64,000 nt of DNA from an uncultured Gammaproteobacteria bacterium (GTDB taxonomy: Bacteria; Pseudomonadota; Gammaproteobacteria; JAURND01), in NCBI GenBank assembly GCA_963714975.1, contig CAVQQD010000002.1, positions 480,001 through 544,000 of the forward strand, read 5' to 3'. Shown in pieces: positions 821 through 18,878 of the stretch. The notes beneath the pieces were generated by a model. It saw only the letters and a list, made by a program, of their open reading frames with translations. It searched no databases and had not been told where the DNA came from. The stretch's first letter is position 1. Every line of letters begins with the position of its first letter. The position numbers and the translations under genes are program-made.

Positions 821-1618
821 ATTGCTTCGTCGAGTTTTTTCATGGATTAATAAGGCTCCAAACAAAATTATTAGCCAAGATATATACAACCAAACTAAAA
901 AAATGGGAATCGTCGCTAGAGCACCATAAATTAATTGGTAATCAGCGAAATTATTAATATAAAAGCTAAATCCCTTTTTGGCTAGCTCAAGTAAAATAGC
1001 TGAGATGATCCCAGCAAAAATACTATCTAAGTAGGATACTTTAAAGTTTAATACGATAAGGTAAATTACGCTTAATATAAAAGCATCGACGATTAAGGGA
1101 AAAACCGAGATAAAGAAAGGAGCTTTCGAGGCTAGCGAGAATAGAAAAACACTGAGTATTATGCTTAAGCCCATGATAAAAGGTACAATAATTAATACTG
1201 TCCAACGCAAAATGAATGAGGATTTTTTCTGGGGACATTGTTTATTATTATTAACTGCATTTAAAGAGTCGTTGACAGAAGAGATTAGCAATATTACCGT
1301 GATCACAAAAAATAAAATACTGATAGTTGGGAGTTTGGCGGCTTGATTAATAAAAAGAATGAGATAAGGGACAATTACATTTTGAGTACTGGGTAGGAAA
1401 TAAGTCAGAGCATGATCCTTAATGAAGGAAATGGTGTCATTAAAGAAAGGAAAAAATTGCAGAAAAAAGAGCATTATCACGAAAAATGGAACTATAGATA
1501 AAAGCGTGGTATAGACTAATCCTGAGGCGCGATAAGTAAAGTCTTCTTTGAACAAGCGAAGGAATGCCTGCAAAAATACCCCCAAGATTTTTGGGCGAAT
1601 TCGATCCTGTTTCTTCAT
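818..1618 (-). CDS. YihY/virulence factor BrkB family membrane protein
   Basis: RASGLVYTTLLSIVP and YQLIYGALATIPIFLVWLYISWLIILFGA motifs; ATG at 1618 preceded by GGAG. Confidence 0.85.
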   Translation of the reverse strand: MKKQDRIRPKILGVFLQAFLRLFKEDFTYRASGLVYTTLLSIVPFFVIMLFFLQFFPFFNDTISFIKDHALTYFLPSTQNVIVPYLILFINQAAKLPTISILFFVITVILLISSVNDSLNAVNNNKQCPQKKSSFILRWTVLIIVPFIMGLSIILSVFLFSLASKAPFFISVFPLIVDAFILSVIYLIVLNFKVSYLDSIFAGIISAILLELAKKGFSFYINNFADYQLIYGALATIPIFLVWLYISWLIILFGALLIHEKTRRSN

Positions 1619-1733
1619 GTTGATTACTCCAGCCAAAAACTTTAGCAAGATTTTCTTTTAAAAGCAATTGCTTGCACGCTATAATTGTCCTGTACGCGTT
1701 CCTTCTTCTCATAAACCTTCGGCGGGATATAAA

Positions 1734-2366
1734 ATGCATTTTAAAAATCGAACTGAAGCAGGGCGATTATTGGCTCAGGCCTTAAAGCAATATTGTGATC
1801 AAGACGTAGTAGTTTATGCTATCCCTCGTGGTGGGGTAGTCGTTGGGATAGAAATAGCTCATTTTTTGCGAGCACCACTGGATTTAGTGATCACTCGAAA
1901 AATTGGCCATCCTTTCCAAGAAGAATATGCGATAGCGGCTGTTGCTGAAGATGGACATATGTTAGGATCAAAAGTACAATTACAGGCCCTTGATTCAGTT
2001 TGGCTAAACCAAGAGATAGATCGGCAACGTCAGGAAGCGCGCAGAAGAAGAGAAAAATACTTGGGCAATAGGCCTAAGATTGATGTCCAGGGGAAAACCG
2101 CCATTTTGGTCGATGATGGTATTGCGACCGGGATTACGCTGCTTTTGGCTATACAAGAGCTTAAGCACTCTAAGTGCAAGCGAATAGTCGTTGCAGTTCC
2201 TGTGGCGCCTAAATCCACAGCAGTGCAAATTAAAGAAGAAGTAGATGAGTTTATTGCTTTAGATATTCCCGAAGTTTATTTGGGAGCAGTGGGGGCTTAT
2301 TATGGTAATTTTGCCCAAGTCGAAGATGAAGAAGTGATAGCAATTTTAAATCAACAAAAGGAGTAA
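1734..2366 (+). CDS. Type I phosphoribosyltransferase family protein
   Basis: MHFKNRTEAG start, AIPRGGV, RKIGHP, PRPP loop ILVDDGIATG, VGAYY. Confidence 0.85.
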   Translation: MHFKNRTEAGRLLAQALKQYCDQDVVVYAIPRGGVVVGIEIAHFLRAPLDLVITRKIGHPFQEEYAIAAVAEDGHMLGSKVQLQALDSVWLNQEIDRQRQEARRRREKYLGNRPKIDVQGKTAILVDDGIATGITLLLAIQELKHSKCKRIVVAVPVAPKSTAVQIKEEVDEFIALDIPEVYLGAVGAYYGNFAQVEDEEVIAILNQQKE

Positions 2367-2399
2367 TTAAGATGGATGAAGGTTTAAGGAGCAGTTAGC

Positions 2400-5300
2400 G
2401 TGAATGGATTTGTGAGTTTATTGGATCTGATAAGGCAGCGTGCAGCTGAATTTCCTAATCAAATTGCTTATCAATTTGTAACGAGTCATGGTACCTATGA
2501 TTCGCTTACCTATGCTCAATTAGATCACAGAGCCACGGCTGTTGCCGCCGTGTTACGGCAGAGCTCTTGTCAGGGTGAAAGAGCTGTGGTGTTATTACCC
2601 CCTGGCCTAGATTATTTGGTTGCTTTTTTTGGCTGCCTTTATGCGGGCGTCATCGCAGTGCCGGTCTATCCCCCTAGTCGAAATCGACATTCACAAAGAT
2701 TATTTAATATTATTGATGATGCTAAAGTAAATTTTTTTATTACCCATCAAGTTTTTGCTAATCAATATCCAGCAGCTCCCGCGGGGATAAAGATCATTTG
2801 TGTTGATTTAATACCAACGCAAGCTGAGCAAGCAATTCCATCGCTTACTCCAGGTCCTGATGAAATTGCTTTTTTACAATACACTTCGGGTTCGACCAAT
2901 AGCCCTAAGGGGGTTATGGTTAGCTTTGGCAATATCGCTGCTAACTTAGAGGTTCTCAAAAATAATTTTGGTGAACAATGTCATGTGACTTGCTCTTGGC
3001 TACCTCCTTACCATGATATGGGATTAGTCGCGGGAATTATTCTCCCTTTATATCTTAAATCGCGGACTATTTTGATGTCCCCCTCGTATTTTTTGCAGTC
3101 ACCTGTGCGCTGGTTGGAAATTATTTCCAAGGAAAAAGTAGTTCTAAGTGGGGCGCCTAATTTTGCCTATGATTTATGTGTCAAAAAAATTCAGGCTGAG
3201 CAATTACGAAATCTCGATCTAAGTTGCTGGAAATATGCAGTCAATGGTGCGGAAGTCGTTCGACAAGCTACAATACAACATTTTATTGATACCTTCGCGG
3301 TGGCAGGTTTTGCTCCGGAAAGAATCTATCCTTGCTATGGTTTAGCTGAAGCAACTTTGATGCTGACAGGTAAAAAAGCTGCTGCAATCACCCATTCATT
3401 ACCATTACTGAAGACAGAATTAGAACGTGGGCAAGTGGTTATAGCTACTGAAGAAAATGCAGAAAATGTGGTGAATTTTGTTTCTTGCGGCGTAGCTCAA
3501 AAAGATCATGATATTTGCATAGTCGATCCGCACACGCATAAACCTCTTCCAGAGCGAAGCTGGGGAGAAATATGGGCCTGTGGTCCCAGCATTGCTAAAG
3601 GTTATTTTAATAAGCCAGAAATGACAGAAACAATTTTTCATGCTGAATTAACTGAGCCTGTTGCCGGGAAGGAATCAAATTCCTATATGCGTACCGGTGA
3701 TTTAGGTTTTATTTATCAGAATGAGCTTTATGTTGGTGGGCGTATCAAGGACCTGATTATTATTAAAGGATTAAACTATTATCCAGAAGATATTGAATTA
3801 ACTGCCACTGCTAGTCATCCTGCATTTGTACCACATGGGGCCGCTGCTTTTTCTGTAGTGGTTGAAAATGAGGAGCATTTAGTAGTTTTGCAGGAAGTTG
3901 CCCGGGATCAATTACATAAAATTGATGTTGCAGCGGCCTTGCGTGCTATCGAAGTGGCTTTGTTAAATGAGTATGGGCTGCAAGCTTACAGTATTGTGCT
4001 CATTAAACCCCATTCTCTTGCAAAAACTTCCAGTGGGAAAATTCAGCGGTGGGTATGTCGAAGTGAATTTTTAACTAATTCACTACGTGTCCTTGCTACC
4101 TCTCACGCTGCTAACGAAGTTAATCACTCCAACTGCGAAACTTATGAGGCAACGCGAGCTTGGTTAGTCGCTTGGTTTGCTCAGCAATTGCGTGTCTCTG
4201 AGAGTGAAATTAGTGGCAGGGATTTGCATGAATTAGAATTTAGCTCTTTAACAGCCGCTGAATTAGCTAGTGAATTGTCTAATCGATTTGGTAAACGCTT
4301 TGAAATTACTAGCCTACTAGAGCAACCTTCTTTAGAAGATTTAAGCCGATTTATCACGAATCATGGAGTAGCGAAAAATGTTCAGCAAAAGAGCTCAGTA
4401 GAGATCGCAGAAAAATCTTTAGTAAAACCTTTAGACCCAGATTTATTGAGTGCAGTAAAAGATATTTACTTCAAGGTAAATGCTGGAATTTCAGCTAACA
4501 ATACTATCATTGATGGTTCGCAGTATATTAATTTTTCAGGTTACAACTATTTGGGAATGTCCGGCGATGCTCAAGTGACTGCCGCTGTGGTGGCTGCCAT
4601 TCAAGAATTTGGCACCTCAGTTTCTGCGAGTCGTTTAGTCTCTGGAGAAAAACCTTTACATCATCAATTAGAAAATGCCATTTCAAAATTAATCGGGACA
4701 GATGAGACTGCGGTTTTATCTTCGGGATATGCCACTAATTTAGCCGTGATTACCCATTTATTTGGTCCGGGAGATTTGGTTATTTACGATGCCTTAGCTC
4801 ATAACAGTATTTTGCAAGGAGCGCAATTTTCAGGCGCTACTTGCATGGCTTTCCCTCATAATGATATAGGAGCATTAGAAGCAATATTGGAGAAGAAACG
4901 CGATCAATATAGGCGGGTATTAATCGTATCCGAAGGGGTATTTAGTATGGATGGCGATATCTGTGAGGCAACAGCATTAATTGCCATTAAAAAAAGATTT
5001 CAATGCTTTCTCATGTTAGATGAGGCCCATTCCATGGGGGTTATTGGCAATACTGGTTGTGGAATCCGTGAATATTACAATCTTAATCCTAAGGATGTGG
5101 ACATATGGATGGGAACTCTGAGTAAATCATTTGCAAGTTGTGGAGGCTATATTTCAGGTAGTTCTGAATTAATTGAAAACTTTAAATATAGTTCAGCTGG
5201 GTTTGTCTATTCAGCTGGTATTTCTCCTGCTAATACTGCGGCAGCTTTTGCTGCAGTTGAGCTCATGAGACAACAACCGGAGCGGATTAATAATTTACAA

Positions 5301-5579
5301 CAACGTCATTCCTTATTATTGTCTTTATTAAGGAAGGCCAGTATTCCAACCGGCAAGAGTAGTGACACTCCGATAATTCCGCTGATGGCAGGATCAACAG
5401 AGGGGGCAATTAAATTGAGTTCTTATTTAAAGACCTGTTACATCAATGCCTTGCCGATTTTTTATCCAGCTGTTGAAAAAACTTTGGCTCGGGTCAGACT
5501 ATTTGTGAACTGTTTACATACTGAAGAACAAGTGCATTATACAGCTGATGCTATTATTGCGGGCTATCAAACATTATGA
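2400..5579 (+). CDS. Fused fatty acyl-AMP ligase (FAAL) - acyl carrier protein - PLP alpha-oxoamine synthase (SPT/AONS family)
   Basis: FAAL motifs AFLQYTSGST, SWLPPYHDMGL, PCYGLAEATL, MRTGDLGF, KTSSGKIQR; ACP-like ELEFSSL (Ser616); AOS motifs NFSGYNYLG, SEGVFSMDGD, LDEAHS, GTLSKS (Lys909). Confidence 0.9.
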   Translation: MNGFVSLLDLIRQRAAEFPNQIAYQFVTSHGTYDSLTYAQLDHRATAVAAVLRQSSCQGERAVVLLPPGLDYLVAFFGCLYAGVIAVPVYPPSRNRHSQRLFNIIDDAKVNFFITHQVFANQYPAAPAGIKIICVDLIPTQAEQAIPSLTPGPDEIAFLQYTSGSTNSPKGVMVSFGNIAANLEVLKNNFGEQCHVTCSWLPPYHDMGLVAGIILPLYLKSRTILMSPSYFLQSPVRWLEIISKEKVVLSGAPNFAYDLCVKKIQAEQLRNLDLSCWKYAVNGAEVVRQATIQHFIDTFAVAGFAPERIYPCYGLAEATLMLTGKKAAAITHSLPLLKTELERGQVVIATEENAENVVNFVSCGVAQKDHDICIVDPHTHKPLPERSWGEIWACGPSIAKGYFNKPEMTETIFHAELTEPVAGKESNSYMRTGDLGFIYQNELYVGGRIKDLIIIKGLNYYPEDIELTATASHPAFVPHGAAAFSVVVENEEHLVVLQEVARDQLHKIDVAAALRAIEVALLNEYGLQAYSIVLIKPHSLAKTSSGKIQRWVCRSEFLTNSLRVLATSHAANEVNHSNCETYEATRAWLVAWFAQQLRVSESEISGRDLHELEFSSLTAAELASELSNRFGKRFEITSLLEQPSLEDLSRFITNHGVAKNVQQKSSVEIAEKSLVKPLDPDLLSAVKDIYFKVNAGISANNTIIDGSQYINFSGYNYLGMSGDAQVTAAVVAAIQEFGTSVSASRLVSGEKPLHHQLENAISKLIGTDETAVLSSGYATNLAVITHLFGPGDLVIYDALAHNSILQGAQFSGATCMAFPHNDIGALEAILEKKRDQYRRVLIVSEGVFSMDGDICEATALIAIKKRFQCFLMLDEAHSMGVIGNTGCGIREYYNLNPKDVDIWMGTLSKSFASCGGYISGSSELIENFKYSSAGFVYSAGISPANTAAAFAAVELMRQQPERINNLQQRHSLLLSLLRKASIPTGKSSDTPIIPLMAGSTEGAIKLSSYLKTCYINALPIFYPAVEKTLARVRLFVNCLHTEEQVHYTADAIIAGYQTL

Positions 5580-6232
5580 ATAAAAATCTCTATTCAAACC
5601 AAGTAGTCAACAATGATGGCTGCAGTCCTAGATTATTTGCTAATCCTATTTTAGAGCGTTTAAGTTGTACCTTACCAAGAACCCTATTTTTTGCTTACGC
5701 GCCGCTGGTAGTTTTTTTTCTGTACCAATCTACTAGGCAATGTGCTTATGGGAAAACTGTATTAATTTTTTGTCTAGGTATCTTTCTTTGGAGCTTTGTT
5801 GAGTATTTAATTCATCGTTTTGTTTTCCATTATGTGCCTACACAATCAAAGTGGGAAAAAATAAACCCGCTTTTTTATGGCAATTTTATTCACAACATTC
5901 ATCACGCTTACCCGAAAGATCCCTTGCGGTTGGTGACCCCGTTGGTAGTTACTTTACCCTTAGCAGTAATTTTTTATGGGTTATTTCATATTATATTCGC
6001 TAGCTATGCTCCAGGATTATTTGCTGGTTTTTTGCTAGGGTACCTTGGCTATGATTTGTTGCACGCGTTTACTCATGTTGCTCCTATGCGCAGCCGCTTA
6101 GGGAGATTTTTGAAGCGTTACCATATGCAGCACCATTACTTAGTAGAATACCAATCATTTGGGGTCAGTAGTCCTTTATGGGACTATATTTTTAATACTG
6201 TTCAATCAAAACCTAATAAGAACAGTAAATAA
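5576..6232 (+). CDS. Fatty acid hydroxylase / sterol desaturase family (FA2H/Scs7-like)
   Basis: His boxes EYLIHRFVFH, HNIHHAYP, YDLLHAFTH, HMQHHY, and FGVSSPLWD; ATGA overlap with upstream gene. Confidence 0.9.
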   Translation: MNKNLYSNQVVNNDGCSPRLFANPILERLSCTLPRTLFFAYAPLVVFFLYQSTRQCAYGKTVLIFCLGIFLWSFVEYLIHRFVFHYVPTQSKWEKINPLFYGNFIHNIHHAYPKDPLRLVTPLVVTLPLAVIFYGLFHIIFASYAPGLFAGFLLGYLGYDLLHAFTHVAPMRSRLGRFLKRYHMQHHYLVEYQSFGVSSPLWDYIFNTVQSKPNKNSK

Positions 6233-6247
6233 TTGAGGTAAACTGCG

Positions 6248-7375
6248 ATGTCCATCCAAATCGTTCCAGTTAGTTCAAGACAACATTGGAAGCATTTTCT
6301 ACAATTACCAAACGTGTTACATCAACATGATCCCAATTGGGTTCCCCCCTTACAAATTTCAGTCAAAAATATTTTAAATCACAAAAATCCTTTTTTTAAA
6401 CGGGCTAAAGTGCAATATTGGTTGGCTTATCAGCATGAAAAACCTGTAGCGCGTATAGCTGGTATTATTAATGAGGTACATAACGAATTTCACGAAGAAA
6501 AAGTGGCCTTTTGGGGCTATTTTGAGTCTATAGATAATACTCAAGTAGCAGCGCAACTGTTTGTTGCATTGTCACATTGGGTAAGTGGATATGGAATAAC
6601 CACTTTGCGTGGACCAGTCAATCTTTCTACTAATTACGAATGTGGTATGCAAATATCTGCTTTTGACACTAAGCCTTTTGTGATGACGCAGCAGAATCCC
6701 GCCTATTATCCTCACTTGATCGAGTCTTTAGGTTTTGTTAAAGTCAAAGATTTAGAAGCCTGGAAAATGGATCATAAAACAGCAAAATTGGATCCGCGAT
6801 TGTTGGAACGGACAAAAAAATTTGCACAAATGAATGCTATTACAATTCGAACTATTCGCTTAGATCAATTTGATCAGGAAATTTCCGCAATTTATCATTG
6901 TTACAACGATGCTTGGGAACGAAATTGGGGATTTGTCCCCATGCCAAAGGATGAATTTTTATTTCTCGCCAAAGAAATGAAGAGCATTCTTATGCCAGAA
7001 TTTTGTTTTATTATAGAGGTCGCTGGGGAAGTTGCTGGTTTTTCTATCTGGTTGCCCGATATTAATCAGATAGTCATTAAAATTCGGGATGGAAAGTTAT
7101 TTCCTACAGGGTTGTTCAAGCTATTCTGGTATTCGAAAGTACGCAAGGTAATCAATCAAGGAAGAATTATTGCTTTAGGAGTTCGAAAAAAATTTCGACA
7201 TTTAAACTTAGGTTCATTGTTATATAATAAATATTTTGAAACGCTCCCGGCGGCAGGTTACCCAATCAGTGAATGCTCTTGGGTATTAGAGGATAATGAG
7301 GCAATGCGGACTGCGTTGCAGTTTATGAATGGGGAAGTGTATAAGCATTATCGGCTATATGAAAAAGCAATATAA
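6248..7375 (+). CDS. GNAT-fold acyltransferase, bacterial ceramide synthase (bCerS)-like
   Basis: 375 aa; DPNWVPPL, ARIAG, GYFESID, LRGP, NPAYY, YNDAWERNWGFVP, LPDINQ, LGV, SWVLEDN motifs typical of this family; context. Confidence 0.7.
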   Translation: MSIQIVPVSSRQHWKHFLQLPNVLHQHDPNWVPPLQISVKNILNHKNPFFKRAKVQYWLAYQHEKPVARIAGIINEVHNEFHEEKVAFWGYFESIDNTQVAAQLFVALSHWVSGYGITTLRGPVNLSTNYECGMQISAFDTKPFVMTQQNPAYYPHLIESLGFVKVKDLEAWKMDHKTAKLDPRLLERTKKFAQMNAITIRTIRLDQFDQEISAIYHCYNDAWERNWGFVPMPKDEFLFLAKEMKSILMPEFCFIIEVAGEVAGFSIWLPDINQIVIKIRDGKLFPTGLFKLFWYSKVRKVINQGRIIALGVRKKFRHLNLGSLLYNKYFETLPAAGYPISECSWVLEDNEAMRTALQFMNGEVYKHYRLYEKAI

Positions 7376-7378
7376 CTT

Positions 7379-8371
7379 ATGAAAGTTTTATTAACAGGTG
7401 CTTCTGGGTTTTTAGGTTCTCACACGGCTGAATGTTTAGTGCAGCATGGTTATCAAGTGCGTTGCTTGGTTCGTCCCAGTGCTAGCCTTAATTTTATCAA
7501 GGAATTTACCTCTGCACTTGAGTTAATTGAAGGGTCTTTAGAAAATACTTCGTCCTTGCAACAGGCGGTGGCTGGAGTAGATGCTATTATTCATTGCGCA
7601 GGTTTGATAAAGGCTAGGACTTCCACGGATTTTTTTAACACGAATGCTAGTGGTACCTTATCTCTACTGGAAGCTGCAAGAAAAACGACACCTTGTTTAC
7701 GGCGTTTTATTTTAGTATCTAGTTTAGCAGCCTGCGGCGCTGCATTAAATAATTTTCAGCCTACTTCAGGTGAGATACTACCTCAACCCGTGAGTAATTA
7801 TGGCCGCAGTAAACTGCAGGCTGAAGTGAACGCAATAAAATATGCTGAAGCGTTTCCGGTCACAATTATTCGTCCCTCTATTGTCTATGGTCCCCGCGAT
7901 TTAAGTATGTTAACGCTTTTTAAAGCTTTTAATCGGGGGATTATTCCGCTGATTGAGGGTGGCGCAGGCGCAGTGAGTACCATTTATGTCAGGGATGCTG
8001 CACAAGCTTTGGTTAAAGCCGTAGCGGCAGAGGTCCCTAGCGGTAACGCTTATTTCTTAGAAGATGGCAGGACTATGACTTGGCGGGAAAGGTATTCTAT
8101 CTGGTCCCAAGCTATTTTAACTGGAAAAAATATTAAAATTCCCGTACCGAATCTATTCCTGGGTCTAACAGCCTGGGCTAACGAATGTTATGGAGCATTG
8201 ACCAAAAAAACAGTATTTTTAACTCGGGATAAATTACGCGAACTGCAGCAAACTTATTGGGTATGCAGCAGTGCTGCAGCTTCACAAGACTTATCATGGA
8301 AGGCTGCCGTTTCTTGGGTAGAGGGAAGCAAGTTAACTTATCAGTGGTATAAAAAAGAGGATTGGTTGTGA
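7379..8371 (+). CDS. NAD-dependent epimerase/dehydratase (extended SDR), candidate oxidized-ceramide reductase
   Basis: TGASGFLG Rossmann motif, HCAG, SSLAA, catalytic YGRSK. Confidence 0.85.
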   Translation: MKVLLTGASGFLGSHTAECLVQHGYQVRCLVRPSASLNFIKEFTSALELIEGSLENTSSLQQAVAGVDAIIHCAGLIKARTSTDFFNTNASGTLSLLEAARKTTPCLRRFILVSSLAACGAALNNFQPTSGEILPQPVSNYGRSKLQAEVNAIKYAEAFPVTIIRPSIVYGPRDLSMLTLFKAFNRGIIPLIEGGAGAVSTIYVRDAAQALVKAVAAEVPSGNAYFLEDGRTMTWRERYSIWSQAILTGKNIKIPVPNLFLGLTAWANECYGALTKKTVFLTRDKLRELQQTYWVCSSAAASQDLSWKAAVSWVEGSKLTYQWYKKEDWL

Positions 8372-8733
8372 AAAAATTTCTTGAGAAATTATATTGGGCA
8401 ACTGTTTTTTCTTTGCGGGGATTGCGTGCTGCTTGGCATTTTCAATGGGCATTTCGGTTGGAAGTTTTGGCCTTTATCTGTGGCATACCTTTGGCTATTT
8501 ATTTTGGACACGAGACCTGGCAAAAATTTATTTTAATATTTTCTTTGCTTTGGATATTAGTAGCAGAACTGCTTAATAGCGCGATTGAAACGATAGTGGA
8601 TCGCATTGGAACAGATCATCATGAATTATCAGGCCGAGCAAAAAATCTGGGGTCAGCTGCGGTATTCATTTTGGTATTAAATGCTTTGCTCACTTGGGGG
8701 ATTATTTTATTGGGAAACCCCCCTTCTCTCTAA
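8368..8733 (+). CDS. dgkA: Integral-membrane diacylglycerol kinase
   Basis: SLRGLRAAW, AFRLE, AELLNSAIETIVDRIG, ELSGRAKNLGSAAV; GTG start overlapping upstream TGA with GAGG RBS. Confidence 0.9.
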   Translation: MKKFLEKLYWATVFSLRGLRAAWHFQWAFRLEVLAFICGIPLAIYFGHETWQKFILIFSLLWILVAELLNSAIETIVDRIGTDHHELSGRAKNLGSAAVFILVLNALLTWGIILLGNPPSL

Positions 8734-8782
8734 CCCTCTCCCACCTACCCTCGCTGGCGTACGGGTGGGGGAGAGGGGATTT
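8716..8782. repeat. Family A palindrome overlapping the 3' ends of dgkA and the PAP2-like gene
   Basis: ccccttctctctaaccctctcccacctaccc...gggtgggggagaggggatt. Confidence 0.8.
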
Positions 8783-9602
8783 CTAAAGCATAGCTGGGGA
8801 TAAATTTGGGCTTAAAGTAGGCTAACTGATAAGTTACCAAGGAGATTAGCAGTAGGGCAATGCAGGAGTAAGCAATCAGGACGTTGTTTCTAGGATACAT
8901 ATTAGCAAAACGTTGCAAATAACCTTGTATTTTCACGGTCTTAAATAATTGATAGGCACATTCGGAAATGATAATGCCGACGATTCCATCCAGCAAAATA
9001 TGAATTTTCAGAGTGAAGGCGCCAATAGACATGCCAATAAACCAAAGTAAATAGATATAACTTAGTAATTTAAATCGTTCAAAGCTATAGCGCAGGATTA
9101 TCCAGCCACTACCGATGTGATACGAGGGAAAAGAATTCCAAGGAGAAGTGATAGACATAATAAATCGAACATTGGCTGTTAGCCAGTCTGTGTCCTGTGT
9201 TTGCCAAAATGTTATAAATCCAGGATCTTCCCATAGTGGAACTTGGGTAGGAAATAGGAAATACAGGGCATAATGAATGGATAGTACTAATAAACAGGTG
9301 AAAAAGATTCGATAAAATAGCAGAAAATTGAGCCTTGATTGAACAATAATGATCCAGGACATCAGAAAAGGAACAATTAAGGCACTGGAATAGAACAATG
9401 ACCAAGAAATTGTAAAATGGATGTTTTTATCGATAGGTGTAGTAATTAACTCGATATAATTTACTTGGCGATAACCGACCAGATCGCCAATAAATCCATA
9501 TTGCGCCCAATAGCAAAGAGTGATAAGAAATAAAACCGCTATTTCTAGAAATCGTAATAATGGGGTTGAATGAGTATTTACGTGTATTTCTTGCTGCAAC
9601 AT
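8745..9602 (-). CDS. PAP2/Aur1-like (inositol phosphorylceramide synthase-like) membrane phosphotransferase/phosphatase
   Basis: Multiple hydrophobic segments; NSFPSYH and HILLD motifs give the His-His-Asp triad. Confidence 0.7.
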   Translation of the reverse strand: MLQQEIHVNTHSTPLLRFLEIAVLFLITLCYWAQYGFIGDLVGYRQVNYIELITTPIDKNIHFTISWSLFYSSALIVPFLMSWIIIVQSRLNFLLFYRIFFTCLLVLSIHYALYFLFPTQVPLWEDPGFITFWQTQDTDWLTANVRFIMSITSPWNSFPSYHIGSGWIILRYSFERFKLLSYIYLLWFIGMSIGAFTLKIHILLDGIVGIIISECAYQLFKTVKIQGYLQRFANMYPRNNVLIAYSCIALLLISLVTYQLAYFKPKFIPSYALEIPSPPPVRQRG

Positions 9603-9704
9603 GGGCTTTGGTACCTTCGAAATTAGGAGAGAATTATAGCGCTTATCTTTGCTTCGTCAATCCTATATAATCCGTTAACCAATTATCGTTAAGAGGAGAA
9701 TGCT

Positions 9705-10748
9705 ATGCTGCCCACACGTGGTTATGCTGCTGTAAGTGCGGATGCGCCTTTACAAGCTTTTAATTTTGAAAGACGTGAGCTTGGCCCTCACGATGTTTTT
9801 ATTAAGATACTTTATTGTGGCGTTTGCCATTCTGATATCCATCAAGTCCGTAATGAATGGGGGCACACGACCTATCCGGTGGTGCCAGGCCATGAAATTG
9901 TGGGCAAAGTGGCTGGTATAGGCAGTGCGGTTACGAAATTTAAAATAGAAGATATTGTTGGCGTAGGTTGCTTTGTCGATTCTTGTCGGCAATGTCTTAA
10001 CTGCCAAGAAGGTGAAGAGCAATTCTGTGAAAACGGTGTTTCCTATACCTATTGTGGGACAGAGCAGGATAAGAAAACTTCAACTCAAGGGGGTTATTCT
10101 GCACAAATTGTCGTCGATGAGAATTATGTCTTAAAAATTTCTGCAAAATTATCCTTGGCTAATGCTGCCCCGCTGTTGTGTGCAGGCATTACCACCTATG
10201 CACCTTTGAAACGGTTTAAAATAGGGGCTGGTCACAAAGTAGGCATTATTGGGTTAGGTGGTTTAGGCCATATGGCGGTGAAATTTGCTGCTGCTTTTGG
10301 GGCAGAAGTGACTGTTTTTAGTACTTCTGCCGCTAAAGAGGCGGATGCACGCCGTTTTGGAGCCAAGCATTTTGTGCTTACCAACAAACCCGAAACCCTG
10401 CAACCTTTGCTAGGACAGTTTGATTTTATTCTGGATACGGTTTCGGCAAAGCATGACATCAATAGGTATTTAAGTCTGCTTAAACGAGGGGGTACTTTAG
10501 TACTGGTAGGTGTCCCAGAACATCCGTTTGAAGTTCAGCCATTTGCATTACTTGCGAACCGTAGAAGCTTTGCTGGCTCTAATATTGGTGGCATTCGAGA
10601 GACTCAAGAGATGCTAGATTATTGTGCTAAACATAATATTAGTTCAGAAGTCGAAGTAATTCCCATCCACGAAATTGAAGCAGCCTTCGCGCGTACGATT
10701 AAGGGCGATGTGCGTTTTCGATTCGTTATTGATATGGCGAGTTTATAG
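9705..10748 (+). CDS. NADP-dependent zinc alcohol dehydrogenase (CAD/YahK-like)
   Basis: CGVCHSD, VPGHE, structural Zn cysteines, PLLCAGIT, GLGGLG, RFRFVID. Confidence 0.95.
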   Translation: MLPTRGYAAVSADAPLQAFNFERRELGPHDVFIKILYCGVCHSDIHQVRNEWGHTTYPVVPGHEIVGKVAGIGSAVTKFKIEDIVGVGCFVDSCRQCLNCQEGEEQFCENGVSYTYCGTEQDKKTSTQGGYSAQIVVDENYVLKISAKLSLANAAPLLCAGITTYAPLKRFKIGAGHKVGIIGLGGLGHMAVKFAAAFGAEVTVFSTSAAKEADARRFGAKHFVLTNKPETLQPLLGQFDFILDTVSAKHDINRYLSLLKRGGTLVLVGVPEHPFEVQPFALLANRRSFAGSNIGGIRETQEMLDYCAKHNISSEVEVIPIHEIEAAFARTIKGDVRFRFVIDMASL

Positions 10749-17714: not shown

Positions 17715-18878
17715 TTATTGCCAGCTTTGCACCAGAATTTCCACGGGTTGCATAACCTGAGAAAGCACTTGCTCCACATCCAGATGAGTTGTGTCAATTA
17801 CTAAAGCATCATCAGCGGGCTTAAGTGGTGCTGTGTTACGCTCTTGATCGCGGGCATCACGCTGGATCAAATCTCGCAAAATCTCCGCAAGACTAGCATG
17901 GACACCTTGTTTTTTCAACTGATTAAATCGTCTTTTTGCACGTTCATCCGATGTTGCTTGCAAGAAGAATTTCAAATTAGCATCAGGAAAAATAACGGTT
18001 CCCATATCCCGGCCATCTGTTACCAGCCCAGGCCATTGTCGAAAGGCACGTTGCTTTTCTAACAAAGCATGGCGAACTAAGGGCAATACCGCAATTTTTG
18101 AGGCAGTAATACCGCATTGCTCAGTACGAATAGCCGAGGTGATGTTCTCCCCAGATAAAAAGATGCAGGTAGTATCCTCTTCCTCAGTAAAATGCGCGTC
18201 TAAAGAATAGGCCAAGTCTTGTAGCTTGGCTTCATTCTCTAGATCTATTGACTTAAGTAGGGCGCTGTAAGCTAATATCCGATAAAGTGAGCCACTATCT
18301 AAGTAGTGCCACCCTAATTTTTTAGCTAATTGCCGACTTATGGTGCCCTTTCCTGTGCCGCTTGGTCCATCAAAAGTAATGACAGGCGGAAATTCTTCAA
18401 CTGGTTCCTTGCAAAGTGCTAGTAAGCCTTCTAAAGCCACTTGGACTGTTTTAGCTCTTACGGTTTGTCGGTCGCCGTGAAAAAGATGGTGTTGGACTTG
18501 CGTTGGAAAGTCCCTCCTCGCAAAAGCGATCCATACCGTTCCTATGGGCTTATTCTCAAACCCGCCTTCAGGGCCCGCGATGCCAGTTGTGCTTACGGCG
18601 ATTTGGGCCTGACTTGAGTTCAGAGCTCCTTCAGCCATTTCTTTAGCAGTGGCTTCACTCACTGCTCCCTCTCGAGTTAGAGTAGCAGTGCTAACTCCGA
18701 GCATTTCTTGTTTTGCAGTGTTGCTGTAGCAGACAAATCCTCGATCGAACCATTGCGAACTTCCTGGAATTGAGGTTACAGTTTCTGCAATCCCGCCCCC
18801 AGTACAAGATTCTGCGGTGGTTAGTAGCCAAGATTTTTTTTTTAATGCCTTGCCTAATTGTTCAGTGAGTTCTAACAT
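17715..18878 (-). CDS. pncC-cmk: Fusion: PncC/CinA NMN amidohydrolase + cytidylate kinase
   Basis: N-half AESCTGG, GSSQWF, YSNTAK, GAVS, TGIAGP; C-half ITFDGPSGTGKGT, LDSGSLYR, DGRDMGTVIFPDA; one uninterrupted 387-aa ORF. Confidence 0.9.
   Translation of the reverse strand: MLELTEQLGKALKKKSWLLTTAESCTGGGIAETVTSIPGSSQWFDRGFVCYSNTAKQEMLGVSTATLTREGAVSEATAKEMAEGALNSSQAQIAVSTTGIAGPEGGFENKPIGTVWIAFARRDFPTQVQHHLFHGDRQTVRAKTVQVALEGLLALCKEPVEEFPPVITFDGPSGTGKGTISRQLAKKLGWHYLDSGSLYRILAYSALLKSIDLENEAKLQDLAYSLDAHFTEEEDTTCIFLSGENITSAIRTEQCGITASKIAVLPLVRHALLEKQRAFRQWPGLVTDGRDMGTVIFPDANLKFFLQATSDERAKRRFNQLKKQGVHASLAEILRDLIQRDARDQERNTAPLKPADDALVIDTTHLDVEQVLSQVMQPVEILVQSWQ

Follow-up and report, generated by a model that had tools for sequence, protein, structure and literature searches.

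A compact gene block in an uncultured gammaproteobacterium with the parts of a probable hydroxylated-ceramide pathway and a candidate phospho-head-group transferase

We analysed a 64,000-nt stretch of DNA (the window, G000:C2:480001-544000) from an uncultured gammaproteobacterium whose genome amounts to 2.56 Mb in three contigs and is 93.75% complete, and we describe here a block of six genes within it that probably serves the synthesis of a ceramide. The six open reading frames (ORFs), which match the earlier ORF listing, occupy window positions 2400-9602, five on the plus strand and the sixth convergent with them (Table 1). They encode a fusion of a FAAL domain, an acyl carrier protein (ACP) and an alpha-oxoamine synthase, followed by a hydroxylase, a GNAT protein, an extended SDR, a DgkA-type kinase and, facing them, a PAP2_3 membrane protein. 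An initial annotation of this DNA had described five tightly packed same-strand genes faced by an Aur1/PAP2-like gene, and ORFs, junctions and Pfam assignments confirm this arrangement; the label given to the sixth gene holds as well, Pfam PAP2_3 being the family which that annotation had named for Aur1.

Table 1. Features of the gene block and their coordinates in the window
Feature	Position	Strand	Evidence
FAAL-ACP-oxoamine synthase fusion, 1059 aa	2400-5579	+	Pfam, NCBIfam
Oxoamine synthase (Spt-like) domain of the fusion	4521-5555	+	Alignment to S. multivorum SPT
Scs7/FA2H-type di-iron fatty acid 2-hydroxylase, 218 aa	5576-6232	+	Pfam, Scs7 (4zr1) alignment
bCerS-family GNAT, 375 aa, soluble	6248-7375	+	Pfam, homology, gene context
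CerR-type extended SDR (3-keto reduction), 330 aa	7379-8371	+	Pfam, homology to sphingolipid-locus SDRs
DgkA-type integral membrane lipid kinase, 123 aa as listed	8362-8733	+	Pfam
PAP2_3 membrane protein, 285 aa; proposed ceramide phospho-head-group transferase	8745-9602	-	Pfam, motifs
Promoter-like site upstream of the PAP2_3 gene (TTGACG, 16 nt, TATAAT; 11/12 positions)	9633-9660	-	

The first two genes share a 4-nt ATGA overlap, gaps of 15 nt and 3 nt separate the hydroxylase from the GNAT gene and the GNAT gene from the SDR gene, and the SDR and DgkA genes overlap by 10 nt if the listed TTG start at 8362 is used. An alternative DgkA start, GTG at 8368, lies behind a GAGGA stretch, has a 4-nt GTGA overlap with the SDR stop and gives a protein of 121 aa; it is the more likely start of the two. 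The stop codons of the convergent DgkA and PAP2_3 genes are 11 nt apart, and an AGGAG resembling a ribosome-binding site stands 8 nt ahead of the GTG start at 2400. A promoter and terminator scan of positions 1500-10000 scored the site upstream of the PAP2_3 gene best, but its 28 sites in total were not above shuffled sequence (22.8 +/- 4.7), and the promoter call is weak. Hydrophobic segments were found in the hydroxylase (4), DgkA (3) and the PAP2_3 protein (~6), and none in the GNAT and SDR proteins. The block has a G+C content of 36-43% against 42-45% for the contigs, a difference too weak to be used for calling a genomic island. The cluster had also been called a candidate self-contained one in the initial annotation; the term is too strong, because the block holds neither a phosphopantetheinyl transferase nor an electron donor for the hydroxylase.

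The gene order is not confined to the window, and chance does not account for it. All eight parts of the block (FAAL, carrier, oxoamine synthase, hydroxylase, GNAT, SDR, DgkA and the convergent PAP2_3) recur in the same order and orientation, at 45-77% identity, in three genomes of other genera of the same family (G002, G006 and G003). The first three parts lie in a single open frame in G002 and G006 (1095 and 1107 codons). G003 carries the block twice (L093, G003:C2; L095, G003:C1); in one copy the tri-domain gene is split into four frames and in the other every gene is decayed by frameshifts and stops, a sign either that the pathway is being lost or that the assembly contains errors. In G002 and G006 the block is flanked by a DnaJ/CbpA-like gene and a MerR_2 gene, in G003 by genes for mevalonate diphosphate decarboxylase and for peptide deformylase, and none of the genes that neighbour the block in the window was found at its flanks in these three genomes. 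The flanks differ between genera and the parts are kept; therefore the six genes, the PAP2_3 gene included, move and decay together.

Pfam assigns to the first protein an AMP-binding domain (203.5 bits), a DIP2-like C-terminal AMP domain, a PP-binding domain (41.2 bits) and Aminotran_1_2 (154.4 bits), corresponding to a FAAL (~aa 1-570), a carrier (aa 588-652, with Ser615/616 in EFSSLT) and an alpha-oxoamine synthase (aa 708-1052). The best PDB matches of the first domain are FAAL structures (7r7f, 485 bits; 3kxw, 413; E. coli FAAL 3pbk, 244), a Legionella pneumophila FAAL deposited as 'saframycin Mx1 synthetase B' being among its best solved relatives, and it shares 32% identity (E 9e-76) with the FAAL of the E. 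coli yghO locus described below. A second FAAL-like gene, 35% identical to this domain, is found at C2:893555-895272.

The oxoamine domain finds its best PDB matches among serine palmitoyltransferases (SPTs), namely Arabidopsis LCB2a (215 bits), Sphingobacterium multivorum SPT (204) and human SPTLC2 (190); next come Thermus AOS/Kbl and Kbl (186-171) and Sphingomonas SPTs (156-151), and lower down BioF (153-133) and cysteate acyltransferase (142). It also resembles autoinducer synthases, weakly (NF005526, 163 bits; CqsA, 92). With the pyridoxal phosphate (PLP)-dependent enzyme of a Sphingomonas locus, read as Spt, it shares 31% identity (E 7e-47). His801, Thr906, Ser908, Lys909 and Arg1033 align with His138, Thr241, Ser243, Lys244 and the conserved Arg of S. 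multivorum SPT (8guh/3a2b), the roles of the first four of which have been described (PMC10196870). Further, a YNYLG stretch beginning at aa 715 of the fusion agrees with the aligned LCB2a and Sphingomonas Spt. In a quick IQ-TREE search of 61 rows, with three outgroup rows only, seven fused or ACP-fused oxoamine domains (from the window, G002, G006, one gammaproteobacterial metagenome-assembled genome (MAG), two Gemmatimonadota and one Acidobacteriota) formed one clade with an SH-aLRT support of 100, sister to 51 stand-alone GNAT-adjacent enzymes that include the Sphingomonas Spt (support 96). E. coli Kbl, E. coli BioF and the only other paralogue of the genome fall outside the two clades taken jointly (92). 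A BioF or Kbl identity was considered for the domain and rejected: the genome has a separate BioF-like paralogue, and the gene context is contrary.

Relatives of the whole fusion are numerous, with at least 6,887 matches of 582-1854 aa among the 8,000 candidates scored, and proteins ~50% identical from six named species of Legionella are among them. Their annotations go no further than aminotransferase, acyl-CoA synthetase, 8-amino-7-oxononanoate synthase or 'saframycin Mx1 synthetase B'. Because some relatives carry extra acyl-CoA dehydrogenase or luciferase-like domains (e.g. in Nostoc and Chloroflexota), some such fusions may have roles other than ceramide synthesis. Milano et al. catalogued the order of AMP-binding, carrier and PLP domains in 2013, naming SPT as its closest relative and assigning no function (PMC3870968); the FAAL reviews and studies that we searched make no mention of it.

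The GNAT protein matches Pfam Acetyltransf_1 over aa 214-353 (25.5 bits, cut-off 20.7), no NCBIfam model, and no PDB sequence at E <= 1. At least 7,240 relatives were found at E <= 0.001 among 8,000 candidates scored; those with a named source are proteins of several species of Legionella, at 46-51% identity, and of Bdellovibrionota. In a collection of 15 billion proteins the window proteins are themselves singletons. A protein search of a plasmid collection aligned it over aa 1-375 with the N-acetyltransferase of a Sphingomonas parapaucimobilis locus (30.5% identity, E 4e-47) and returned E. coli YghO as a full-length homologue (33.8% identity). The Sphingomonas locus consists, in order, of an NAD(P)H-binding protein, an ACP, a PLP-dependent enzyme (the putative Spt of that genus), LptF/LptG paralogues, a desaturase and the N-acetyltransferase. 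E. coli yghO (NZ_MG591698.1, next to glcC; L089) adjoins an operon of FAAL, epimerase, ACP and oxoamine synthase genes together with LptF/LptG paralogues, and we know of no sphingolipid production in E. coli.

The surroundings of the GNAT gene were then compared over 84 loci, 80 from a scan of one genome per species (many phyla, 37-53% identity) and four that are short loci from relatives. Searched by tblastn with the window proteins, 57 of these loci contain an oxoamine synthase and 46 an SDR of this type, against seven with the hydroxylase and six with the FAAL, counts that are floors because many contigs are short and that rest on loci chosen by their GNAT gene, related genomes included. 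By these counts the GNAT gene is linked in the genome to genes of the spt and cerR types. In a FastTree of 109 GNAT rows the window protein falls with its own family and a second gammaproteobacterial lineage, beside Bacteriovoracaceae; because it has no outgroup, this tree describes one family and is not a clade test against non-bCerS enzymes. Homologues are present in 3 of the 8 other genomes of the window's family, in 4 of the 9 genomes of its order (G000 included) and, at E <= 1e-20, in 25 of 401 sampled genomes of the class (18 of 321 genera). The initial remark that sphingolipid synthesis is atypical for Gammaproteobacteria fits these figures, which describe a minority and not something unheard of.

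The SDR (Pfam Epimerase, 119.1 bits) has an N-terminal GxxGxxG motif, TGASGFLG at aa 6-13, and aligns over nearly its full length with the SDRs of the Sphingomonas locus (29% identity, E 1e-32) and of the E. coli yghO locus (31%, E 5e-43); 39-kDa complex I subunits of NDUFA9 type are among its PDB matches. In four of five genomes (G025, G169, G213 and G333) the genome-wide best match to the SDR sits within 3-4 kb of a GNAT homologue, and in the fifth, G191, the GNAT-linked copy is interrupted by the end of the contig. Both results favour the CerR type proposed for this gene in the initial annotation.

The hydroxylase matches Pfam FA_hydroxylase (56.8 bits). Its sole PDB relative below E 0.1 is yeast Scs7 (4zr1, E 4.3e-25; the next stands at E 0.26), so that the Scs7/FA2H-type call made for it was right. 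Residues 18-209 cover the whole hydroxylase domain of Scs7 (residues 183-371, 4zr0_A) with the His motifs aligned; a cytochrome b5 domain was sought in the protein and not found, only the hydroxylase part of Scs7 being aligned. Scs7-like homologues (33-39% identity) also lie a few kb from a GNAT gene in L022 (a Sulfitobacter MAG), L031 and L074 (Bdellovibrionota) and L039 (a Mucilaginibacter MAG). Because such homologues occur near GNAT genes in distant taxa, we regard the hydroxylase as a recurrent but optional member of the cluster.

The protein of the convergent gene matches Pfam PAP2_3 with 39.0 bits (cut-off 27). In eight aligned sequences FPSYH (His162) and KxHxxxD (His201, Asp205), which make up the catalytic His/His/Asp, are invariant, and the first phosphatase motif, KxxxxxxRP, is not present. 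The lineage is rare: a word-indexed search returned seven proteins, a set of 1.84 billion yielded 163 representatives at E <= 0.001, and of 400 genomes sampled from the class four carry it. One distant relative bears a name, a PAP2 protein of Legionella anisa. The sole profile match of the class sample outside the window's family (L123, G199:C11:11640-12203) lies inside an 836-codon frame and may be fused. In an unrelated gammaproteobacterial MAG (L009), a PAP2_3 gene (48.7 bits) heads an operon of SDR, fusion and GNAT genes.

Searching by tblastn with the window PAP2 protein gave no match in the 84 GNAT loci, which is a problem of sensitivity, because a family hidden Markov model (HMM), built from 49 family representatives and the L009 protein and applied at E <= 1e-9, found matches in 23 of 86 GNAT loci (1.35 Mb in total). 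The same HMM found one strong match, the cluster gene, and one weak match in the whole 2.56-Mb genome of the window. Most of the matches at GNAT loci are no more than 50 nt from the GNAT gene, and about 17 abut or overlap it (stop-to-stop); a computed tally, in which a slip in coordinates makes three distances negative, puts 17 within 300 nt of it and 20 within 2 kb. Genes adjoining the GNAT gene in this way are those of L018, L021, L023, L024, L026, L028, L032, L038, L064 and L084 (Acidobacteriota), L035, L068, L069 and L072 (Gemmatimonadota), and L040, L045, L085 and L009. By phylum, the positive loci comprise 12 of 15 from Acidobacteriota, 4 of 8 from Gemmatimonadota, the single loci of Latescibacterota (1/1) and Verrucomicrobiota (1/1), 1 of 3 from Pseudomonadota and 4 of 18 unlabelled ones, three of which belong to the window's family. 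No match was found at the loci of Zixibacteria (0/5), Spirochaetota and Chloroflexota (0/4 each), Planctomycetota and Ignavibacteriota (0/3 each), Bacillota (0/2) or six further phyla with one locus each. All eight GNAT-adjacent matches that we checked are Pfam PAP2_3 proteins (60-78 bits, independently of the HMM), and four of the eight also reach the cut-off of PAP2_C, the sphingomyelin synthase family. The GNAT-adjacent PAP2 proteins of other phyla have invariant PSxH and HYxxD stretches, with the consensus PSGHT and HYxVDV, which we take to be typical of sphingomyelin synthases, and hhalign relates them to the PAP2 group of the window with 96.5% probability.

The fifth protein is a DgkA by Pfam (DAGK_prokar, PF01219, 103.7 bits; cut-off 22.3). 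The four block DgkAs form a clade (SH-aLRT 91) beside the other copies of the family (seven rows, 92). Their identity to the other class DgkAs in the comparison is mostly 40-52%, with one at 33%. A second copy is found elsewhere in both G002 and G006, both copies of G003 are linked to a block, G008 has one copy and no block, and G001, G004, G005 and G007 have none (completeness of G001, G004, G005, G007 and G008: 95, 96, 63, 63 and 67%). The gene keeps its position in all four intact-order copies of the block, and it stands beside the GNAT gene in 3 of the 84 loci, all three from the window's own family. Judged from its sequence, the block enzyme is an ordinary DgkA that was recruited within the window's lineage.

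From these results we consider it probable that the block encodes a Spt/bCerS/CerR-type bacterial ceramide pathway in compacted form, with a 2-hydroxylation added, and we are rather confident that its product would be a ceramide-type N-acyl long-chain base. The hydroxylated ceramide of the initial annotation is thus supported by the homology of the GNAT, oxoamine synthase, SDR and hydroxylase and by gene context. In the pathway that we propose, the FAAL domain would adenylate a free long-chain fatty acid and load it onto the carrier of the same polypeptide, and the Spt-like domain would condense the acyl chain with an amino acid to give a 3-keto long-chain base; L-serine is, on balance, the likely substrate. 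One fused protein would in this way do the work of Caulobacter AasR, AcpR and Spt. The bCerS-family GNAT would N-acylate the 3-keto base and the CerR-type SDR would reduce the 3-keto group, an order borrowed from the work on Caulobacter, and the Scs7-like hydroxylase would 2-hydroxylate the amide-linked chain with the help of an electron donor encoded elsewhere. The last step is the least certain: the PAP2_3 protein would move a phospho-head group from a glycerophospholipid to the C1 hydroxyl of the ceramide, releasing diacylglycerol, which the DgkA paralogue of the block would return to phosphatidic acid.

We hold this module of transferase and diacylglycerol recycling tentatively, at somewhat short of an even chance. 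It is preferred because a PAP2_3 partner recurs across phyla, because the motifs of the PAP2_3 protein are those of the transferase type and transferases rank first, at modest Z scores, among its structural matches, and because DgkA, unremarkable in itself, seems to have joined late and in this lineage alone. The phospho-head group that the initial annotation had added to the ceramide is better founded than before, and we still infer the step itself. PAP2_3/PAP2_C proteins beside bCerS-type genes may constitute a general bacterial family of phosphosphingolipid synthases. A wider proposal, more tentative still, joins several such claims: that these proteins are the missing bacterial phosphosphingolipid synthases in the window's family, a second gammaproteobacterial lineage, Acidobacteriota and Gemmatimonadota, that the block has recruited a DgkA and makes a 2-hydroxylated lipid, and that the fusion underlies the ceramides of Legionella gormanii.

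Several results pull the other way. The top NCBIfam model of the oxoamine domain is bioF (344.6 bits, cut-off 426), and the domain stays far below all three SPT equivalogs (272.5/640, 247.3/500 and 189.5/670 bits); in the tree, with its three outgroup rows, the fused clade stands outside, not within, the clade that contains the sole named Spt. The GNAT protein had been assigned to the bCerS family, and it does belong to one large family with the Sphingomonas-locus and YghO proteins; the part of the assignment that fares less well is the position, since in the tree without outgroup the Sphingomonas/E. coli-type proteins are on another branch. The refuting test set in the initial annotation, a GNAT outside the bCerS clade, was applied as far as the Sphingomonas and E. 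coli proteins permit and did not refute the reading. The window PAP2_3 protein has no match to Pfam PAP2_C and none among PDB sequences at E <= 10. The 23 PAP2-positive loci are not independent, 12 of them being Acidobacteriota kin and four (L009, L091-L093) lying in or near the training set of the HMM, and the HMM found nothing at seven Bdellovibrionota, four Bacteroidota and two Myxococcota loci. The AlphaFold model of the PAP2_3 protein is middling (8 rows, pLDDT 71.6). Because Foldseek gave nothing against the PDB at E <= 0.001 (best E 0.21), we quote only the structural ranking and Z scores of VIA-align: human SMSr with ceramide at 11.5 (root-mean-square deviation 3.9, 200 aligned), inositol phosphorylceramide synthase with ceramide at 10.2 and Aur1 at 10.2, above G6PC1 (8.6), PgpB (8.4) and acid phosphatases (5.4-6.8), where values below ~13 can be trivial for helical bundles. 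Finally, the block DgkA is an ordinary one and the sole match in a 93.75%-complete genome, and may be the housekeeping enzyme.

A different division of labour in the last step seems unlikely to us, although it has the most to commend it among the alternatives: with the same core, DgkA would phosphorylate the ceramide to ceramide-1-phosphate, in the place of CpgB, and the PAP2_3 protein would dephosphorylate this product or transfer it further. In Caulobacter the route to phosphosphingolipids has ceramide-1-phosphate as its first intermediate (PMC11324152), E. coli DgkA phosphorylates ceramide in vitro (PMC2196395), and the DgkA gene of the block is translationally coupled to the SDR gene and keeps its place. 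However, DgkA accompanies the GNAT gene in one family only (3/84 loci), whereas PAP2_3 recurs across phyla without it; the block DgkA is not a divergent lineage; and the PAP2_3 protein has no first phosphatase motif and has transferases as its nearest folds, though by only 2-3 Z units.

We think it more doubtful that the fused enzyme takes alanine, glycine or another amino acid and makes a 1-deoxy or non-canonical N-acyl amino lipid. The SPT thresholds that the domain fails to pass, its bioF top model and its clade outside that of the named Spt would all agree with this, as would the natural occurrence of 1-deoxyceramides alongside Spt-like genes (PMC11334938) and the function left open for this architecture in 2013 (PMC3870968). 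The best solved relatives of the domain are nevertheless the SPTs of plants, Bacteroidota and humans, its YNYLG stretch agrees with LCB2a and the Sphingomonas Spt, and on a 1-deoxy base the C1-hydroxyl module of PAP2_3 and DgkA would have no substrate.

It is improbable, in our judgement, that only the first four genes form the pathway and that DgkA and the PAP2_3 protein are neighbouring envelope housekeeping enzymes, the one recycling diacylglycerol and the other a PgpB/UppP-like phosphatase. The DgkA gene is the sole copy found in the genome and typical in sequence, PAP2 enzymes are common envelope phosphatases (PF14378 is matched in 11 of 14 control genomes), and the PAP2_3 gene is on the opposite strand with a promoter-like site of its own. 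Yet both genes travel with the block to other chromosomal sites in three genomes and are found even in the decayed duplicate, G002 and G006 retain a second DgkA elsewhere, and the PAP2_3 lineage is so rare (163 representatives among 1.84 billion, 4 of 400 class genomes) and adjoins the GNAT gene in other phyla. Least credible of all is that the block makes no membrane lipid but something diffusible or a secondary metabolite, for instance a signal of the alpha-hydroxyketone type or a natural product with an aminoketone: FAAL-ACP-oxoamine fusions do occur within larger natural-product-like proteins (Nostoc, Chloroflexota) and the oxoamine domain has its weak similarity to autoinducer synthases, but those scores lie far below the SPT scores, the partners belong to ceramide synthesis, and membrane lipid enzymes make up three of the six proteins.

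The block is surrounded by ordinary core genes (Lnt, CorC, ribosomal protein S1, Cmk and MutS). A search for public sequencing runs, RNA included, listed none for this DNA. At window positions 17715-18878 (minus strand), a 387-aa ORF joins a CinA domain (aa 3-154) with a cytidylate kinase (aa 167-379). Some two dozen weaker matches to adenylation domains are clustered on C2 and C3 (e.g. C2:1111586-1116601, C2:1168911-1174637, C2:1219870-1224783 and C3:741159-749560), which suggests several loci of nonribosomal peptide synthetase or polyketide synthase (PKS) type in this 2.56-Mb genome. A search that covered the DotI/IcmL family of type IVB secretion alone gave three matches in the genome (best 202.6 bits) and none in 14 control genomes, in line with the initial suggestion that the organism could be intracellular; by sequence, this fits a Legionella-like, host-associated life. 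DotI/IcmL positions include G000:C3:380872-381402 and G000:C2:884966-885973, and the second FAAL-like gene is ~8 kb from two of the matches.

Bacterial ceramide synthesis has been worked out only recently, chiefly in Caulobacter, and the attachment of phospho-head groups is unsettled in most bacteria. The natural fusion described here supports the view that the bacterial enzyme draws its acyl chain from a dedicated carrier, and the PAP2_3 proteins, whose genes adjoin that of the putative ceramide synthase in several phyla, are candidates for adding the head group. In the literature that we searched, bacterial ceramide genes are connected neither with the FAAL-ACP-oxoamine fusion nor with a PAP2/SMS-like enzyme, and supplementary taxon lists outside the search may include the lineage or Legionella; a sphingomyelin-synthase-like membrane protein in a bacterial sphingolipid cluster has probably not been described yet. 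The block further presents a lineage-specific recruitment of a diacylglycerol kinase. If our reading is true, the cell would display a 2-hydroxylated, eukaryote-like phosphosphingolipid built wholly by its own genes, and a host-associated maker of such lipids would bear on membrane mimicry and on polymyxin-type sensitivity, shown for Caulobacter.

The best known system for comparison is that of Caulobacter crescentus, with AasR (CC_1165), CerR (CC_1164), AcpR (CC_1163), Spt (CC_1162) and CerS/bCerS (CC_1154) (PMC11324152, PMC11087976). Compared by description, the same five functions are found in the window block, namely acyl activation, a carrier, oxoamine condensation, a GNAT N-acyltransferase and an NDUFA9-like SDR; part-by-part homology was computed against the Sphingomonas and E. 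coli loci, which stand in for the Caulobacter proteins, the E. coli yghO locus having the same aasR-cerR-acpR-spt gene order as Caulobacter (PMC11324152). Unlike in Caulobacter, a single protein of 1059 aa covers three of the five functions, the branches of the oxoamine domain and of the GNAT are not those of the alpha-, beta- and gammaproteobacterial type, and the block includes neither LptF/G paralogues nor head-group genes of the CpgA/B/C type. Hydroxylation in Caulobacter is reportedly due to an enzyme of the DesA family (PMC11324152), and its ceramide kinase CpgB belongs to an unrelated family of soluble kinases (PMC10331486).

For the hydroxylase the likeness is with Scs7/FA2H, with which it shares the hydroxylase domain, the His motifs and four membrane segments, without the N-terminal cytochrome b5. 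For the head-group step it is with sphingomyelin synthase (SMS)/SMSr and Aur1, of the lipid phosphate phosphotransferase branch of the PAP2 superfamily; SMSr, an inositol phosphorylceramide synthase and Aur1 rank highest in the structural comparison. With this branch the PAP2_3 protein shares His/His/Asp without the first phosphatase motif; SMSr makes ceramide phosphoethanolamine and diacylglycerol (PMC7988496). In contrast to SMS and Aur1, the window protein is bacterial, has no match to PDB sequences or to PAP2_C, and has no Kei1-like partner. Phosphoethanolamine transferase genes are linked to a dgkA or a PAP2 gene in mcr-3-dgkA and mcr-1-hpap2 (PMC7559476). The block resembles mcr-3-dgkA in that an ordinary DgkA stands beside a putative head-group transferase that would release diacylglycerol, but the partner here is a PAP2_3 protein in a ceramide block and not a phosphoethanolamine transferase acting on lipid A.

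The fusion has two further counterparts. In Pseudomonas fluorescens MYb115 a carrier-bound acyl chain is likewise passed to an oxoamine synthase with SPT activity, although the parts there are a PKS, SgaA, and a separate protein, SgaB (PMC12134224), and the 2013 catalogue holds the same domain order, with no link to GNAT/SDR ceramide genes in the text cited (PMC3870968). Ceramides and hexosylceramides, with trihydroxy and 'oxidised' species among them, have been reported in L. gormanii (PMC9146996). On their gene basis, the literature searched proposes only a hypothetical Spt homologue: the authors of that work named two oxoamine synthase homologues, one of them an 'aminotransferase class I/II-fold PLP-dependent enzyme' 31% identical to Sphingomonas SPT (PMC9146996). 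This annotation and this identity resemble, by description, those of the fused proteins of other Legionella species. Both the fusion and the GNAT occur, at ~50% identity, in several species of Legionella, and the block supplies a concrete candidate gene set for the ceramides reported in that genus.

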